Shown piece by piece: positions 15,944-57,243 of a DNA stretch of 64,000 nt. The stretch lies in assembly GCA_030426465.1 (NCBI GenBank), contig JAUHYK010000008.1, positions 4,756 to 68,755 on the forward strand. Reading direction: 5' to 3'. Each line of letters begins with the position of its first letter. The stretch's first letter is position 1. Both the position numbers and the translations under genes were made by a program. This DNA comes from Alphaproteobacteria bacterium (lineage in GTDB: Bacteria > Pseudomonadota > Alphaproteobacteria > Caulobacterales > Parvularculaceae). The notes under the pieces are model-generated. The model saw nothing but the letters and a program-made list of their open reading frames with translations. It was not told the origin of the DNA and searched no databases.

Positions 15944-16081
15944 CGGTAAAGGCGCTGTCCTGAACCTAAAAAAGTCTTGCTGAAAAATTTTCAAAACAAT
16001 TTCGGTCTTTAGCAGGATCATTTATCCTTCTCGTATAAGTTGCGCGGTGTCTCGGGGGAGGCTTTTGCAAGAGGCGAGAGA

Positions 16082-16444
16082 ATGGACAACAACGCTGAAG
16101 ACAATCGGAAGAGTTTCCGCTTTGGGCTAACGGCTTCAGTCGATGTGATGGACGGTGTGGAGCGTCATGCGTTTGGGACGCTAATCGACTTTTCACGGGA
16201 CGGCGCCGGGATTCGCAGCATGACGCCGGTGAATATGGGACGGAAATACAAGTTTCATGTTCGCGGGATCGGCATCTGGAGCGGTGTTGTGGTGCGCCGG
16301 TTTGACGGGCGCAGTTACGGCGTACGGTTTGAGAATTCAGAAACGGAAAAGCGCCAGATCGACCGCATTCTCATGAGTATGATGGATGGCACAATGGACG
16401 CCTCCGCGGTCTGCCAGGTCCGTCCCCGCATTCGCGCATTCTAA
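16082..16444 (+). CDS. Stand-alone PilZ-domain protein
   Basis: RKSFR (RxxxR) and DFSRDG (DxSxxG). Confidence 0.75.
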   Translation: MDNNAEDNRKSFRFGLTASVDVMDGVERHAFGTLIDFSRDGAGIRSMTPVNMGRKYKFHVRGIGIWSGVVVRRFDGRSYGVRFENSETEKRQIDRILMSMMDGTMDASAVCQVRPRIRAF

Positions 16445-16670
16445 TTGAAGTAAAGACACGGGCCGAACGACAAGGCCCCGACAATCGACTTCGGGCCCGC
16501 ATGCGTCTCCAGCCGCTGCGGGCCTTTTGCATCAGCGTTACAAAATTTCCGTATCCGGAAAAAATACCGGTGGAAGGAATAATATAATGAAAATTGTCCT
16601 TAAATGACTCAGCATATTTTCCGCTAGGTTTTCTTCCATGTCGTATAAAGGCGCCTCTCGGGAGGACGCT

Positions 16671-38273: not shown

Positions 38274-40172
38274 ATGCGCAATCTCAACAAACCGGTGCTG
38301 GCGGCAGTGAGCGGACTTGCCTTGATGGGCCTCGCCGCCTGCGGAGAACGCAGGCCAGCGCCGGAAGAACAGCAGACTCCGGCGGCCGAAGCGCCAGCGG
38401 CGGTTCTTACCGCCAATGAACAGCTCGAGGCGATGGCGGCCCGTCACGCAGCGGCGGTTTTGCAATCGTCGCCGGAACTCGCAAGTTTTCTCGGCGTCAG
38501 CGAGGATGTCGCGGGTGAGGGTTATCGCGCACGGCTCGGCGGTTATGGCTTCGCCGCCTTCGAAGGTGTGCGCGCCCTCAACGAAGGTTTCTTGCAGGAC
38601 ATTCGCAGCATCGACCGCGCAGCGCTCTCCGGTCCGGCGCTCGTCACCTATGACGTCTTGCGCGACGCCTATCAGACGGCGGCGCGGCGCAACCAGTTTT
38701 TCTTTGGCGGCGCCACGCCCTACGCCTCGACGAGCCCCTATCTGGTGACGCAGCTTTCCGGTCCGCATCTTTACCTGCCGCGACTGATGTTGACCCAGCA
38801 CCGGCTGGAGACTCGTCAGGATGCGGAGGATTATATTTCACGCCTGGCTGAATTCAGCCGGGTTTTCGATGAAACCATTGAAACCGTGACCGGCGACGGC
38901 GCCCAGTTGGTGACGCCGCCGGTTTTCGCTATTGACGGCGCGATGAATTCGATCGCGGGCTTTACCGCATCGGCGGCGGCGGACAATCCGCTGGTCAAGA
39001 CATTTGCGGCGAAGCTGGAGGGCGTGGACGGTCTTTCCGAAGAGGACCGTTCAGCACTGACGGCGCGCGCCGCCGAAATGGTGGAGGTGAATGTCTATCC
39101 CGCTTACACGCGTCTCGCGGCTGCTCTTGAAAATCTCAAATTTCAGGCGAGCGCCGATGCGGGGATATGGCGTCTCGGCGACGAAGGCGCAGCCTTTTAT
39201 GCGTTGGCCCTTTCGTCCTATGGCGCCGGCGGGATGACCGCCGATGAGGTCCATGAACTGGGCCTTTCGGAAGTTGAACGCATCTCGGGAGAGATGGATG
39301 CGATTCTTAAGGCTCAGGGGCTGACGCAGGGAAGCGTCGCTGAGCGTTTTTCGTCGATCGGTAAACGCGACGGCATGCGTTATCCAAATAATGACGAGGC
39401 GAAAGAGGTCTTGCTGACCGATCTCAACGGGCAAGTGGATGAAATCATGTCTCGCGCCGGCGACTGGTTTGGAACCTTGCCGGCGCAACAGGTCGAAGTG
39501 CGGCGCATTCCTGTCTATGAACAGGATTCCTCGCCCGGCGGTTACTATTCTGCGGCTCCTCTCGACGGATCGCGTCCCGGCATTTTCTGGATCAATCTGA
39601 AAAACACCGCCGACTGGCCGAGGCATATGCTGAAAACCCTGACCTATCACGAAGCCGTGCCGGGCCATCATTTTCAGCGTTCGCTCGAACGCTCTGCTGG
39701 GCTTCCGCTCATTCGCACCATGCTTGGCTATTCTGAATTTTCAGAAGGTTGGGCGCTATACGCTGAGCAAGTGGCGGCCGAGATGGGCATGTATGCGGAC
39801 GACCCGTTTGGCGACCTTGCGCGGCTGCAGTCGGAGCTCTTTCGTGCGACGCGGCTGGTTGTTGATACAGGACTTCATCACAAGCAATGGAGCCGCGAAC
39901 AGGCGATCACCTATATGCAAGGGGTGACCGGCGATACAGAAGATCAGGTAACGCGCGAGGTTGAGCGTTATTCGGTCTGGCCGGGACAGGCCTGCGCCTA
40001 CAAGCTCGGTATGTTGAAGATCAACGAGCTTCGCAACAAGGCGGAAGAAGCGCTTGGGCCTGATTTCGATATTCGCGAATTCCACGACGAAGTGCTGCTC
40101 ACCGGCGCCATGCCGCTCCCGGTTTTGGACCGCAAGGTCACGGCGTGGATCAAGAAAAAACAGGGCGTTTAA
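38274..40172 (+). CDS. DUF885 family lipoprotein (putative metallopeptidase)
   Basis: HEAVPGHHFQ, EGWALYAE, RLVVDTGLH, PGQACAYKLG; lipobox LAAC. Confidence 0.92.
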   Translation: MRNLNKPVLAAVSGLALMGLAACGERRPAPEEQQTPAAEAPAAVLTANEQLEAMAARHAAAVLQSSPELASFLGVSEDVAGEGYRARLGGYGFAAFEGVRALNEGFLQDIRSIDRAALSGPALVTYDVLRDAYQTAARRNQFFFGGATPYASTSPYLVTQLSGPHLYLPRLMLTQHRLETRQDAEDYISRLAEFSRVFDETIETVTGDGAQLVTPPVFAIDGAMNSIAGFTASAAADNPLVKTFAAKLEGVDGLSEEDRSALTARAAEMVEVNVYPAYTRLAAALENLKFQASADAGIWRLGDEGAAFYALALSSYGAGGMTADEVHELGLSEVERISGEMDAILKAQGLTQGSVAERFSSIGKRDGMRYPNNDEAKEVLLTDLNGQVDEIMSRAGDWFGTLPAQQVEVRRIPVYEQDSSPGGYYSAAPLDGSRPGIFWINLKNTADWPRHMLKTLTYHEAVPGHHFQRSLERSAGLPLIRTMLGYSEFSEGWALYAEQVAAEMGMYADDPFGDLARLQSELFRATRLVVDTGLHHKQWSREQAITYMQGVTGDTEDQVTREVERYSVWPGQACAYKLGMLKINELRNKAEEALGPDFDIREFHDEVLLTGAMPLPVLDRKVTAWIKKKQGV

Positions 40173-40207
40173 GCGCTCGCATGTCAACAAAACAGACAGG
40201 AGCCGAC

Positions 40208-41728
40208 ATGATCATCCGGACTCTCGCGGCGATCTTTTTATTATCATATAGCGGCGCCTGCGCCGTTGCGCAGGAAGAAGATAAAAACCAGGAAGCCGCG
40301 GCGGCGAAAGACGGCGCTGAGCCGCGCCGCTACGAAACGAAGGCCCGGGTGAGCGCTGGCGGCGCGAATGTCGCCTATAAGGTTATTGCTGGCGAAACCT
40401 TTATCGAGAACGACAAGGGCGAACCTGTCGCGTCGATTTTTTCGACATCTTATATTGCGGATGGCTTTGCTGATCCGCGCGAGCGGCCGGTGGCGTTTAT
40501 TTTCAATGGCGGGCCGGGCTCGGCTTCCCTGTGGCTTCATATGGGTGTTTTCGGACCGAAGCGCGTTCGTCTTCCCGAAGGGCCCGATGATGACGGCGCG
40601 GCGCCATTCGATCTCATCGCCAATCCGGAGTCGATCATCGATGTCGCCGATATGGTGTTTATCGATCCGGTCGGCACGGGCTGGTCGAAGACCCTGGGCG
40701 AGGGCAAGACGGATGAATATTGGGGCGTCAAACAGGACGCCGCGTCAGTGCGCGAATTCATTCGCCGCTGGCTGGTTGAACATAAACGCTGGAACTCACC
40801 CAAATATCTGATTGGCGAAAGCTATGGCACGACACGCTCGGCGGCGCTTCTGGAAGCGCTTGAAAGCGGCTGGACCGACATCGCCGTGAATGGCGTCGTC
40901 CTGATTTCAACCGTGTTGAATTTCGGTCTCGACGCCACCGACGCGGGCAACGATGTTGGTTATATCGGGCTGATGCCGGGTTACGCCGCCACAGCGTGGT
41001 ATCATGACAAGGTCGACAAAGCCGCTTGGGGCGGGGACATGCAGCGCTTTCTCGATGAAGCGCGCGCCTTCGCTACTGACGACTATATGCCGGCGCTGCT
41101 CAAGGGCCAGCTGGCCTCGGCTGCGGAGCGCGAGGCGGTTGCTGCGAAGCTTGCGGCCTTTACCGGACTTTCCGAAAGCTATGTGACGCGCTCCAACATG
41201 CGCATTCCCCTGCGTCGTTTCATGCGTGAATTGCTGCGCGATGAAGGGCTTGCAGTGGGGCGTCTCGACTCGCGCTTTACCGGCGTTGAAGCTGACGGCG
41301 TTGGTGAAAATCCGGAGTATGATCCGTCCGCCTATGGCATTGACGCCGCCTATACGGCCGGCATGCTCGATTATTTCGGTCGCGATCTCGGCGTCGATAT
41401 CGCCGAGCCTTATACGACGCTTGGCGGCGTGCGCGGCTGGAACTGGGACGCCGAAGATGGCGGCGGTCAGAATGCGTATGTGAATGTGGCGCCCTGGGTG
41501 GAGCGGGCGATGCGCCAGAACCGCGATCTGCGGGTCCTGTCGGCGAATGGTTATTACGACCTTGCGACTCCGTTTTTCGGGACGGAAATGACGCTCGCGC
41601 AGCCGGGCTTCGACCGGTCGCGCCTGACCATCACCTACTATGACGCCGGCCACATGATGTATATCCATCAGCCTTCGCTGGAAGCCTTGGCGAAAGACGT
41701 GCGCGCCTTCATCAGGAACGAACGATGA
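40208..41728 (+). CDS. Peptidase S10 serine carboxypeptidase
   Basis: FNGGPGSAS, FIDPVGTG, GESYG, YYDLATP, AGHMMY. Confidence 0.92.
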   Translation: MIIRTLAAIFLLSYSGACAVAQEEDKNQEAAAAKDGAEPRRYETKARVSAGGANVAYKVIAGETFIENDKGEPVASIFSTSYIADGFADPRERPVAFIFNGGPGSASLWLHMGVFGPKRVRLPEGPDDDGAAPFDLIANPESIIDVADMVFIDPVGTGWSKTLGEGKTDEYWGVKQDAASVREFIRRWLVEHKRWNSPKYLIGESYGTTRSAALLEALESGWTDIAVNGVVLISTVLNFGLDATDAGNDVGYIGLMPGYAATAWYHDKVDKAAWGGDMQRFLDEARAFATDDYMPALLKGQLASAAEREAVAAKLAAFTGLSESYVTRSNMRIPLRRFMRELLRDEGLAVGRLDSRFTGVEADGVGENPEYDPSAYGIDAAYTAGMLDYFGRDLGVDIAEPYTTLGGVRGWNWDAEDGGGQNAYVNVAPWVERAMRQNRDLRVLSANGYYDLATPFFGTEMTLAQPGFDRSRLTITYYDAGHMMYIHQPSLEALAKDVRAFIRNER

Positions 41729-54410: not shown

Positions 54411-55190
54411 TCACTGGGCGGCGGCGGCCTGTTCCGCAAGCTCGATTGTGTGGTCAAGGAGCTCCCGTCCGCCCATGGGCCCGTGAGACGGGATGACAAT
54501 CTCTGCTTCCGGAAAAGCCTCAGCAACATTCCTGACGGCTTCAGCCCAGTGGCTTACATCGCCATCAGCCGTGTTGCCGAGATTTTTGGATTCGCCGGGC
54601 CGAATGAGGCATCCGCCAAACAGCACTTTCGCCGGTGCGTAATAGACGACGATATTGTCGCGTGTGTGGCCAGCGCCGGGGTAATAAATTTCGTAATGAT
54701 GGTTCTGCGAGTGGGTGGTAATGACTAGCTGCGTCGCCCCTTCCTCCAACGCCAGGCTTTTTTTTGCAGGGCTCAGACCGCGCGCAGGCGCATCTTCGTT
54801 GGAAAACTGGTGCGCGATGGTTTCTACGCCATGAGCATGAAGCGCGCTCATGCCGCCCATCTTGTCGCTATGCGCGTGCGTAACGATGGCTGTCGAAGGC
54901 AGGCCGCCAGTTTCCGATTCGACTAGATTGAGTAGCGCTTCCGTTTCTTCGTCGGTCCATGCGGTGTCTACAAGAATGACACCCTTATCTGTTTGCACAA
55001 CAAGTCCCTGCGACAGGACAAGCCCCCAGCCGCTGACATAATCATAGCTCTTGTGAATCCAGACATTGTCGGCGATTTTTTCCAGCGACGGCGCGGGCAG
55101 CGCTTCGGCGGTTTGGGGCGTTTCTTTATTGGTCGCGCAAGCGGCCAGAGAAACGAGCGCAAGAGCGGCGAGAAAACTTCTAAACATCAA
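54411..55190 (-). CDS. Subclass B1 metallo-beta-lactamase, NDM-like lipoprotein
   Basis: [41 protein letters not shown] give all six B1 zinc ligands; lipobox LAAC. Confidence 0.9.
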
Positions 55191-55795: not shown

Positions 55796-55820
55796 GTTTT
55801 TATCCCTTATCGAAAAAAAA

Positions 55821-55863
55821 TTATCGTTTTTCGGCAAAAACCACTTGCATTGTTTTTCGATAA
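55821..55863. promoter_or_regulatory. Two TTATCG-T5-CGATAA-type boxes (55821-55837, 55847-55863) plus half-sites at 55807 and 55872
   Basis: TTATCG-TTTTT-CGGCAA and GCATTG-TTTTT-CGATAA; same consensus as 33795-33811. Confidence 0.65.
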
Positions 55864-55872
55864 GTCTATATC
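55845..55872 (+). promoter_or_regulatory. sigma70-type promoter of the leader-micropeptide-DUF2975-HTH unit
   Basis: TTGCAT-N16-TATATC. Confidence 0.55.
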
Positions 55873-55878
55873 GATAAT

Positions 55879-56163
55879 CAACAAGACGGTGATCAACGCC
55901 GCAAGCACAGGACCCCGGGCTCGGAGAAATACCAGACCCTGGGTGAAAAGAAAAAGGCCGAAAAGACCGGGCGAACCGGCGAAAAGAGCCAAAAAGGAGA
56001 AACCCGGGGAAAGGTCGGCCCCGCCCGAGAAAAAGGGAAAACCGGCCAAACAACAGGGCCCGAAAGGCCCAAATAGCAGCCCGAAAAAAAAGAGCGGCGG
56101 AAAAACCGCCGCTCAAGAAGATCAAAAACGAGCCGCTAACACAGGAAAGAAAAGGAGAAACCC
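55879..56163 (+). ncRNA. Candidate structured, almost U-free leader RNA or ncRNA
   Basis: 11 T and ~117 A in 285 nt; at least five GC stems with A-rich or GAAA-type loops; 14-nt direct repeat AAAAGGAGAAACCC at 55992 and 56150. Confidence 0.6.
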
Positions 56164-56298
56164 ATGCGCTTTGCTAACTCAAACTCAAGTTTCGATAAAT
56201 TTGGCTACTTTGTCAATGGACTGGCCGTATTCCTGACCATTTCTGTCATCGCCGCCGGCTATGTCTCGGCGATCGGCTCCTTCGCTGGGGTGGCGTAA
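56164..56298 (+). CDS. 44-aa single-TM micropeptide [44 protein letters not shown] (not in ORF track)
   Basis: AAGGAG SD, in-frame stop upstream at 56137, TAATG coupling to the next ORF. Confidence 0.7.
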
Positions 56299-56453
56299 TG
56301 TCCAAACTTTTCCACAGAACGGCGGCGGCGGTGTTCGCCGCCTTCGCGGCGGCGAGCCTTTACTCCCTCGCCGTCGCCTCGCCCGCCGAGAGCGGGGCTG
56401 ACGACGCCCGGCAAAGCTGCGAAAAAGCCTTCTGCCTGATCGCCCTGTTCTAG
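56298..56453 (+). CDS. 51-aa secreted micropeptide [51 protein letters not shown] (not in ORF track)
   Basis: TAATG overlap; Sec-type signal peptide; C-terminal CxxxxC. Confidence 0.65.
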   Translation: MSKLFHRTAAAVFAAFAAASLYSLAVASPAESGADDARQSCEKAFCLIALF

Positions 56454-56506: not shown

Positions 56507-57019
56507 ATGCGCGCGATAGGCAAAGGATCGCTATCGTCGATTCTCGCAGTCGGCCTTCATGTCACGCGCGTGATCTTGTGGATCATGCTGGGCCTTGTGA
56601 CCCTTGCGCTGATCATTCTGCCCTTTGCGCCGGCTATCGCAGATCTTTTTTCGCACTCCGACGGGATCAATATTGATGGCGTCGTCGATGCTGAAGACTT
56701 CATCAAGGTCTCCTACGCCTTTGTCACAACGGCAGTGATGTTGTTTGTCGTGAACCGCCTCCTGGAAATCCTAAAAGCGCTGCGGTTCGGATCGCCTTTT
56801 GTCAAAGAGAACGCCGACCGGTTTCGCGGCATTGGCTATGCGCTCCTGATGGGAGAGGGCGCCAAATTCGCGTTCGGTTTTTTGTCGCTGATCTTTGACG
56901 CCGATGTTGAGCTCAACATGACGTTCCTCGCCTGGCTCGCAATCATCACCGTGTTCGTGCTTGCGGAAGTGTTCCGCGAAGGCGCGCGCATGAAAGAAGA
57001 ACAGGACCTCACCGTTTAA
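56507..57019 (+). CDS. DUF2975 membrane protein, module 2
   Basis: TM segments, GSPFVKENADRFR, AEVFREGARMKEEQDLTV; TAATG-coupled to HTH. Confidence 0.9.
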   Translation: MRAIGKGSLSSILAVGLHVTRVILWIMLGLVTLALIILPFAPAIADLFSHSDGINIDGVVDAEDFIKVSYAFVTTAVMLFVVNRLLEILKALRFGSPFVKENADRFRGIGYALLMGEGAKFAFGFLSLIFDADVELNMTFLAWLAIITVFVLAEVFREGARMKEEQDLTV

Positions 57020-57243
57020 TGTCGATTTCCGTCAAACTTGATCGGGTTTTGCTCGACCGCGGCATGTCGCTGACGGAGCTCTCCGAACGGGTGGGCGTGA
57101 CGATCGCCAATCTTTCCATTCTCAAAACCGGCAAGGCGAAAGCGATCCGCTTTTCGACGCTTGAAGCTATCTGCAAGGAGCTAGATTGCCAGCCGGGGGA
57201 TATTCTTTTCTTCGACGATGACGGCAAGACAACCGCTGATTAG
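57019..57243 (+). CDS. Cro/C1-type HTH regulator (YozG-like), module 2
   Basis: KLDRVL, TIANLSILKTGKAKAIRFSTL, CQPGDIL. Confidence 0.93.
   Translation: MSISVKLDRVLLDRGMSLTELSERVGVTIANLSILKTGKAKAIRFSTLEAICKELDCQPGDILFFDDDGKTTAD

Follow-up and report, generated by a model that had tools for sequence, protein, structure and literature searches.

The 285-nt T-poor segment analysed here lies within a 64,000-nt stretch of DNA, referred to below as the window. The segment is flanked on one side by rdgB, a minus-strand gene of the Ham1 family that starts near 55797, and on the other by a plus-strand peptide operon that is transcribed divergently from rdgB. The operon encodes, in this order, a 44-aa membrane peptide, a 51-aa secreted peptide, a DUF2975 protein and an HTH regulator. 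The segment, the promoter predicted upstream of it and the four genes are arranged as follows.

55845-55872, plus strand: predicted operon promoter, with a -35 element TTGCAT (55845-55850), a 16-nt spacer and a -10 element TATATC (55867-55872)
55879-56163, plus strand: T-depleted, A-rich leader, running from the predicted transcription start site (about 55879-55881) to the ATG
56164-56298, plus strand: pep44, a conserved ORF for a 44-aa single-pass membrane micropeptide
56298-56453, plus strand: 51-aa micropeptide with a signal peptide and a C-x4-C motif, whose start overlaps the pep44 stop (TAATG)
56507-57019, plus strand: DUF2975 membrane protein (Pfam PF11188, 8e-12)
57019-57243, plus strand: HTH_26 regulator (Pfam PF13443, 2e-21)

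Homologous leaders were gathered with the 44-aa peptide as anchor. The comparative set covers 46 genomes in six genera, with 39 distinct leaders from the genus itself (Hyphococcus/Marinicaulis, in which the nearest related locus is that of the cultured strain H. aureus KCTC 62394, its leader being 97% identical) and seven from five further genera of the Parvularculaceae. All 46 loci share one order: rdgB on the opposite strand, an AT-rich block (CTTGCAT-N16-TATATCGATAAT), CAAYAAG with a hairpin that we call P1, a middle region, an A7-9 tract with a GC hairpin, 55-80 nt ending in a purine/SD block, and the peptide ATG. The product of pep44 is conserved in the 46 genomes as one hydrophobic helix with small-xxx-small spacing, always 44 aa long in the 39 genus genomes and 42-47 aa long in the other genera. 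Its homologues fall into 116 protein clusters, every one of them annotated as 'hypothetical', and a search of 201 genomes of the order returned 27 hits, 26 of them within the family. We conclude that pep44 homologues are confined to the Parvularculaceae. Neither the 44-aa nor the 51-aa micropeptide matched a family in Pfam or NCBIfam; the 51-aa peptide was found in 30 of 30 genus loci checked, and the DUF2975 gene starts 319-495 nt past the pep44 ATG in 38 of the 39 genus genomes. The segment at 55879-56163 is the 5' untranslated leader of this Parvularculaceae-specific operon.

A conserved promoter-like element stands on one side of the leader and the real SD on the other. The predicted operon promoter is contained in an AT-rich block with TTATCG/CGATAA half-sites, and this block is near-invariant in the 46 genomes of six genera. 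A sigma-70 scan did not report the operon promoter, which is weak compared with the E. coli consensus, its -35 element matching at 3 of 6 positions. AT-rich inverted repeats upstream of YoaS-YozG operons have been described as putative operators in a 2026 preprint (bioRxiv 10.64898/2026.09.15.751765). The likeness of our locus to these DUF2975-HTH operons consists in the AT-rich inverted-repeat block upstream of the DUF2975-HTH pair, here at 55807-55877; the YoaS-YozG operator is promoter/operator DNA and not a U-poor leader, and here the leader and two micropeptide genes intervene between the operator and DUF2975. By analogy, the resemblance suggests that the HTH protein may autoregulate the operon at the level of transcription, on top of an RNA layer.

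The leader stands out by its composition. The initial annotation had counted 11 T and about 117 A by hand, and no T at all in 55945-56014; direct counting agrees on both points, giving A117, G81, C76 and T11 in 285 nt and zero T across the 70 nt from 55945 to 56014. When all 285-nt segments of the window were compared, the one richest in A (119, starting at 55876) and the one poorest in T (11, starting at 55879) were both located here. The background per segment is 58 ± 10 A and 59 ± 11 T, so that the deviations from the window means amount to about +6 SD for A and -4.6 SD for T. The plus strand of the leader is 69% purine, with almost no G/C skew. Among the stretches inspected in a genome-wide scan (4.4 Mb), this was the sole non-coding one of such composition; the remaining T-poor/A-rich stretches inspected were coding, mostly AKKA-type Lys/Ala-rich CDS.

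The composition is conserved in relatives, in all 46 genomes. Their leaders contain 2.3-12.3% T and 34-50% A at lengths from 120 to 285 nt, a 2.4-fold range, and are flanked by DNA with 33-39% T upstream and 18-29% T downstream. T drops from about 35% to about 4% directly 3' of the AT-rich promoter block, and the bias then runs from the predicted +1 to the ATG. Since the bias is kept while lengths vary and the middle of the leader cannot be aligned (see below), the bias itself is the conserved character, and the low-U leader is under selection. The leader DNA is present in 30 of 37 same-genus genomes and is single-copy in its own genome, which rules out a repeat or mobile element. In the literature we found no description of U-depleted bacterial leaders, nor a transcriptome of the genus.

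Selection of this kind could in principle act on DNA, with the segment serving as a spacer that keeps the divergent promoters of rdgB and the peptide operon insulated from each other; DNA curvature, triplexes, R-loops or bound nucleoid proteins could bring this about. A strand with 69% purine and almost no G/C skew would suit such a spacer, as would the conserved position between divergent genes. The bounds of the bias, however, are landmarks of an RNA, downstream of the promoter block on one side and at the start codon on the other, the length varies 2.4-fold and the hairpins described below covary; we consider the spacer very improbable.

We also considered that the leader might be a coding sequence, as an ORF of 128 aa (55850-56236), which would be Lys/Arg/Pro-rich, spans it and every further T-poor A-rich stretch inspected in the genome is coding, mostly Lys-rich. 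All six frames are in fact open, as every stop codon requires a T (an A when read from the opposite strand). Lengths of the leaders of close relatives differ by 1-2 nt (285/283, 267/266), which are not multiples of 3 and break the frame, within the overall range of 120 to 285 nt. No start codon is conserved in the leader, the GTG at 55889 of the window being GCG in leader L003 of the set. The leader is without the repeat periodicity of AKKA proteins, and the 128-aa ORF overlaps the beginning of the conserved 44-aa gene in a different frame. The frame-breaking indels and the missing conserved start and reading frame rule out a Lys-rich CDS, a reading to which we attach next to no probability; in this the initial annotation, which had taken the segment for an RNA, was right.

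On the plus strand, the RNA reading divides the leader into the following parts.

55887-55901, plus strand: P1, a 5'-proximal hairpin (CGGUG/AUCAA/CGCCG) present in all 46 leaders
55902-56083, plus strand: variable middle, in which A-rich linkers separate short G-C hairpins; its length in relatives is 0 to about 190 nt
55992-56005, plus strand: further identical copy of the SD box AAAAGGAGAAACCC, which no start codon follows, found in clade L001-L007 only
56139-56163, plus strand: purine block ACACAGGAAAGAAAAGGAGAAACCC with the SD GGAG (56154-56157), near-invariant across the genus

Folding of the plus-strand leader gave a minimum free energy (MFE) of -92 kcal/mol, compared with -69.5 ± 4.7 kcal/mol for dinucleotide shuffles (z -4.8), and 0 of 200 shuffles folded as well. 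Five stems had been noted by eye. Four of them (55956-55990, 56013-56047, 56056-56070 and 56092-56114) are contained in this MFE structure, whereas the stem at 55912-55944 is absent from the single-sequence MFE and appears only in the consensus fold of the clade. The recurrence of CGAAA, also noted initially, proved to be at chance level, with 22 copies found in the 3.3-kb locus where 19 ± 4 were expected. An antitermination element, also proposed initially, finds no terminator on the plus strand to act on. We did not find a riboswitch-type multi-helix core with invariant junctions in the leaders; what is conserved is P1, the terminator hairpin described below and the SD block.

In the homologous leaders, the whole-leader MFE has a mean z of about -3.8 on either strand. 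Because this value is equal on both strands, the blocks of the leader were tested one by one. P1 carries compensatory changes (CGCCG/CGGCG, CGGTGG/CCACCG, CGACGA/TCGTCG, CGCTG/CAGCG, GGAC/GTCC), and G·U wobbles on the plus strand occur in eight sequences while the opposite (A·C) pattern occurs in three. Its consensus energy is -6.6 on the plus strand versus -1.4 on the minus strand. P1 is best read as the 5' hairpin of the plus-strand mRNA.

The variable middle cannot be aligned between clades, yet it is just as T-poor. Consensus folds of the middle from four clades did not tell the strands apart, and a strict tally of 1x1 mismatches in hairpins yielded too few cases for use. The SD box AAAAGGAGAAACCC had been reported to recur at 55992 and 56150, and it does occur exactly twice in the 64-kb window, at these two positions, where 0.02 occurrences are expected. 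The idea that the first copy is an SD decoy stands only in part, as the copy is present but is kept in its own clade (L001-L007) only. In 6 of 28 lineages, the middle has independently acquired copies of pieces of the 3' block, namely of the SD box in L001/3/4/7, of CACAGGAAAGAAAAG in L012 and of GCTCAAGAAGATCAAACGAGC in L008. Local duplication thus accounts for at least part of the growth of the leader, and the 'SD decoy' is an instance of it, not a trait shared by the family. The purine block, on the other hand, is near-invariant in the genus though the first codons of the ORF vary, and its 25 nt are unpaired in both the MFE and the centroid fold of the plus strand; its SD is a strong one and precedes the conserved pep44 ORF. 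The initial annotation's central claim of a selected RNA architecture is thus borne out, since the bias and the hairpin modules persist throughout the 46 genomes of the six genera despite a middle whose sequence turns over.

The block at the 3' end of the leader behaves differently from P1. Here, three features are predicted on the minus strand.

56084-56114, minus strand: intrinsic terminator ending the predicted antisense RNA, with its stem at 56114-56092 and U8 at 56091-56084
56084-56180, minus strand: predicted cis-antisense RNA of ~97 nt, consisting of a 5' hairpin SL1 (56180-56130), a U-rich spacer and the terminator
56188-56216, minus strand: predicted antisense promoter in the pep44 ORF, with a -35 element TTGACA (56216-56211) and a -10 element GAAACT (56193-56188)

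A terminator scan reports the minus-strand terminator at 56084-56114. A U/A tract of 5-9 nt (6-9 nt within the genus) with its hairpin is found in 46 of 46 genomes. In relatives, the stem at 56092-56114 contains one to three A·C mismatches on the plus strand, and these are G·U pairs on the minus strand; terminator pair 93-111, for instance, is U·G in 16 of 28 sequences. When unique variants of the hairpin were compared, the minus-strand form was the stabler one in 20 of 31, with a margin above 1 kcal, and the plus-strand form in 1 of 31; the consensus fold of the 3' block, computed on one alignment of 28 sequences, has an energy of -16.6 kcal/mol on the minus strand versus -6.0 kcal/mol on the plus strand. 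Because G·U pairs can hardly form on a T-poor plus strand, decay is expected to leave A·C mismatches there, and the asymmetry in favour of the minus strand is partly confounded by T depletion. The segment had been described as one RNA. Of this description, the perfect 9-bp stem is real, but together with its A8 tract (56084-56114) it behaves as a minus-strand terminator. Given that A·C on the plus strand is G·U on the minus strand and given the difference between -16.6 and -6.0, an antisense RNA gene convergent with the operon is the better reading of this part.

The predicted promoter of that gene lies within the coding sequence of pep44, with a 17-nt spacer and a +1 near 56180. TGTCAA (TTGACA on the minus strand), which covers codons 16-18 of pep44, does not vary in any of the 46 genomes. 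Entropy is zero at the third positions of codons 16 and 17, even though the amino acid specified by codon 16 may be I, F or V; it is zero or close to zero at those of codons 5 and 10 and averages about 1.2 bits at the remaining third positions. The third base of codon 10 coincides with the first base of the predicted -10 box, and that of codon 5 with the G of GAG, a conserved triplet located at the predicted +1. The -10 variants (GAAACT, GACATT, GAAATT and GAAGTT) keep A-11 and T-7. The sigma-70 scan did not report the antisense promoter, because the -10 element matches at 3 of 6 positions only.

The predicted antisense RNA folds with an MFE of -33.3 kcal/mol (z -4.0; MFE frequency in the ensemble 0.24). 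The apical loop of SL1, UUUCUCCUUUUCUU (14 nt, about 56147-56160), is the exact complement of the SD region. A two-hairpin fold in which the 5' GAG is paired to a conserved CUC was obtained for 39 of 42 homologues and for 35 of 35 genus sequences. In an alignment of 20 sequences, 91.5% of the cells form standard pairs in this fold, compared with 42-55% in slid controls, and identical column pairs are 91.5% paired on the minus strand versus 75.7% on the plus strand, in a test whose structure came from the minus-strand fold. Six pairs changed on both sides, and the covariation score was above that of 500 of 500 shuffles; the covariation is modest because the block is highly conserved. Judging from the sequences, the last 80 bases of the leader and the first 17 nt of the ORF probably encode an antisense RNA on the minus strand.

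As the initial annotation had suspected, the segment belongs to no known Rfam family. When both strands were searched with the covariance models of Rfam 15 (E up to 10), all 25 matches fell well short of the gathering score of their family. RF00519 (suhB/mmgR) scored best, reaching 24.9 bits on the minus strand (E 0.012) where the gathering score is 41, and its alignment covers essentially just the terminator, leaving the anti-SD motif unaligned. The mmgR/suhB RNA (alpha-r8) resembles the predicted antisense RNA in being an alphaproteobacterial sRNA of about 80-100 nt with a CUCC-type pyrimidine-rich motif and a strong terminator; the context here differs, being cis-antisense to a peptide gene. 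As a side observation, an A-tract and hairpin conserved together in a leader can be the sign of an antisense gene that annotation has missed.

A minus-strand transcript could alternatively belong to the rdgB operon, for which it would form a long and U-rich leader subject to attenuation, for example of a UTP-sensitive kind, at the terminator (56114-56084). The order TTGACA, terminator, U-rich region and rdgB is indeed found on the minus strand in all 46 genomes, no strong rdgB promoter was recognised by the scan, and such a transcript would account for the bias over the whole interval. Yet the bias stops at the AT-rich block and not at the rdgB start, P1 prefers the plus strand, and we saw no conserved alternative (antiterminator) pairing. 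Moreover, the middle ranges from 0 to 190 nt and is unalignable, and rdgB, a housekeeping gene, occurs without this locus in the other families of the order. We regard attenuation of rdgB as improbable.

A stronger case can be made for the plus strand only, that is, for a single structured 285-nt leader that would serve as a protein scaffold, a standby site or enhancer, or an RNase E-resistant stabiliser, with no antisense RNA involved. The bias, whose limits in 46 genomes are precisely the predicted +1 and the ATG, the plus-strand fold (z -4.8) and the strand preference of P1 speak for such a leader, as does the confounding of the minus-strand asymmetry by T depletion. A-/AG-rich 5' UTRs translate unusually efficiently in E. 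coli (PMC5389652). The genome encodes Hfq, and the exposed A-rich single strands beside the SD recall the A-rich leaders bound by Hfq through (ARN)n repeats (e.g. rpoS) as well as A-/AG-rich enhancers. One (ARN)5 run, AAG AAA AGG AGA AAC, lies over the SD. In 44 leaders, however, (ARN)n runs were not enriched relative to dinucleotide shuffles (mean z 0.6 for the longest run and 0.45 for the total), and we know of no Hfq or enhancer A-rich leader described with near-total exclusion of U over 120-285 nt.

CsrB/RsmZ sponges offer another comparison on the plus strand, with their hairpins, single-stranded linkers in between and several GGA motifs. Here, in contrast, the GGA motifs are in the linkers or at the SD and not in hairpin loops, and the RNA is a leader and not a free-standing sRNA. 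No CsrA gene (PF02599) was found in the organism's own 96%-complete assembly, in which the controls were positive, and a CsrB-like sponge is therefore unlikely. That no CsrA gene was found and that ARN runs are not enriched weighs against a plus-strand leader acting by itself as well, and so do three further features: the A7-9 tract 5' of a GC hairpin in 46 genomes, which has no known role on the plus strand and is a canonical terminator on the minus strand; the stem that tolerates up to three A·C mismatches; and TGTCAA, which is held at synonymous sites of the ORF. We consider a plus-strand leader without antisense RNA unlikely, though the most probable of the rival readings.

We therefore favour, with somewhat better than even confidence, a model in which a U-poor, selected mRNA leader is combined with a cis-antisense RNA of ~97 nt that blocks the SD of the peptide. 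Transcription of the antisense RNA would start at the TTGACA promoter inside the pep44 ORF and end at the 9-bp stem with U8. Its 5' hairpin would display an anti-SD loop of 14-17 nt, which would make a kissing contact with the exposed SD region before pairing extends to a full duplex; the duplex would block 30S binding and probably trigger cleavage. The logic of this putative mechanism would be that of hok/Sok-type and other cis-antisense controls of small membrane peptides.

Type I cis-antisense loci include hok/Sok, Ibs/Sib, Ldr/Rdl, TisB/IstR-1 and ZorO/OrzO. The locus described here resembles them in its small hydrophobic single-pass peptide (<60 aa) and its long structured 5' UTR, in an antisense RNA of ~100 nt (here predicted) with a promoter in or near the peptide gene and a terminator in the leader, and in the complementarity of that RNA to the SD/start region, with the recognition sequence in a hairpin loop (here predicted). 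Type I toxin-antitoxin modules are usually self-contained two-gene units, monocistronic and often multicopy or mobile. In contrast, pep44 is the first gene of a four-gene operon, and the locus is single-copy, vertically inherited and in fixed synteny with rdgB in six genera. Its leader is U-depleted and variable in length, and the peptide has no similarity to known toxin families. We did not file the locus as a type I toxin-antitoxin system, since toxicity would be presumed by analogy only and since the four-gene operon, the single copy and the vertical inheritance beside rdgB set it apart. If confirmed, the model would establish a membrane micropeptide under cis-antisense control in Alphaproteobacteria, in which, to our knowledge, type I-like modules have hardly been described. 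It would also link such control to the widespread and uncharacterised DUF2975-HTH (YoaS/YozG) pair, which would provide a handle on the function of the pair.

The near-absence of U has a direct consequence for folding: A (41%) cannot pair, helices are G-C only, and the 25-nt SD block cannot be masked in cis. It is possible that low U serves to keep the SD open so that the antisense RNA alone controls it. The antisense RNA overlaps only ~80 of the 285 nt of the leader, however, so that the U depletion of the remainder is not explained by it. RNase E prefers AU-rich single strands with U at +2, and low U may accordingly remove RNase E sites; it may also recruit an A-binding factor. That one nucleotide has been almost entirely kept out of these leaders throughout the evolution of a family, although their sequence turns over, clearly exemplifies selection acting on RNA composition, and explaining the exclusion of U could reveal a design rule of bacterial leaders, be it an unmaskable SD, nuclease resistance, recruitment of a factor or an antisense decoy.

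A more speculative reading, which we hold to be rather unlikely, is that the leader is a regulatory RNA defined by its composition. It would be a platform of tunable length that recruits an A-binding factor (the distal face of Hfq, or S1) or titrates its own U-rich antisense RNA, with every A single-stranded between G-C-only hairpins, and it would grow via local duplication of boxes complementary to the antisense RNA. If true, this would make the leader a cis element that is invisible to sequence and structure searches such as Rfam. Complementarity between the antisense RNA and the non-overlapped upstream leader was not above that of shuffles outside the clade of the window's leader. Within this clade, it was stronger than in shuffles (z -1.2 to -2.4), by way of the SD-box copy at 55992.

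The extreme exclusion of U from the 5' leader of the operon is strongest in Hyphococcus and genus g16, because some other genera have a less T-poor segment ahead of the SD. At L075, L076 and L078, homologous loci from other genera, T makes up 10-12% of the leader overall, and T depletion is clearly weaker in the 55-80 nt running from the terminator hairpin to the SD. Elsewhere in the source genome, the remaining stretches with extremely little T or A are explained by several genes with long Lys/Ala/Thr-rich, histone H1-like tails of AKKA/KRKT repeats, located outside the window:

C21:9124-9590, AKKA/KRKT-repeat tail gene
C30:7810-8157, AKKA/KRKT-repeat tail gene
C45:19856-20079, AKKA/KRKT-repeat tail gene
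C107:80125-80408, AKKA/KRKT-repeat tail gene

Stretches on C19 (~39970-41648, 1648 bases) and C101 (~15985-16498, 498 bases) are runs of N, masked or withheld sequence that is not genuinely low in T.

In the variable middle part of the leaders at L008, L012, L025-L027 and L030, length shifts through the gain or loss of whole hairpin modules; the module CTCCAGC-NNNN-GCTGGAAAA, for instance, is present in one to three copies in the leaders of L025-L030. These same middles also change in length where parts of the 3' block have been duplicated.

The leader is flanked by the following features:

55807-55877, between rdgB and the leader, AT-rich block with repeated TTATCG/CGATAA half-sites
56164-56453, plus strand, genes of the 44-aa peptide and the signal-peptide protein (loci L001-L061)

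The AT-rich block, which holds a 12-bp inverted repeat (CTTATCGAAAAA…TTTTTCGATAAG) among its half-sites, is near-invariant in six Parvularculaceae genera. It probably comprises the operator for the HTH regulator of the operon together with both divergent promoters.

The first peptide is exactly 44 aa long in 39/39 genomes of Hyphococcus/Marinicaulis, in which M1, S6, G14, V17, N18, G19, G32, Y33, F40, A41 and G42 are invariant. Its stop is overlapped by the start of the second ORF, which encodes a signal-peptide protein of 48-54 aa ending in C-x4-C and a hydrophobic tail. Both micropeptides are lineage-specific and are annotated everywhere as 'hypothetical'.

One further ORF, seen in the ORF list only, lies directly 3' of rdgB on the same strand:

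54411-55190, minus strand, metallo-beta-lactamase-like ORF of 259 aa

Its N-terminus carries a lipobox-like signal.
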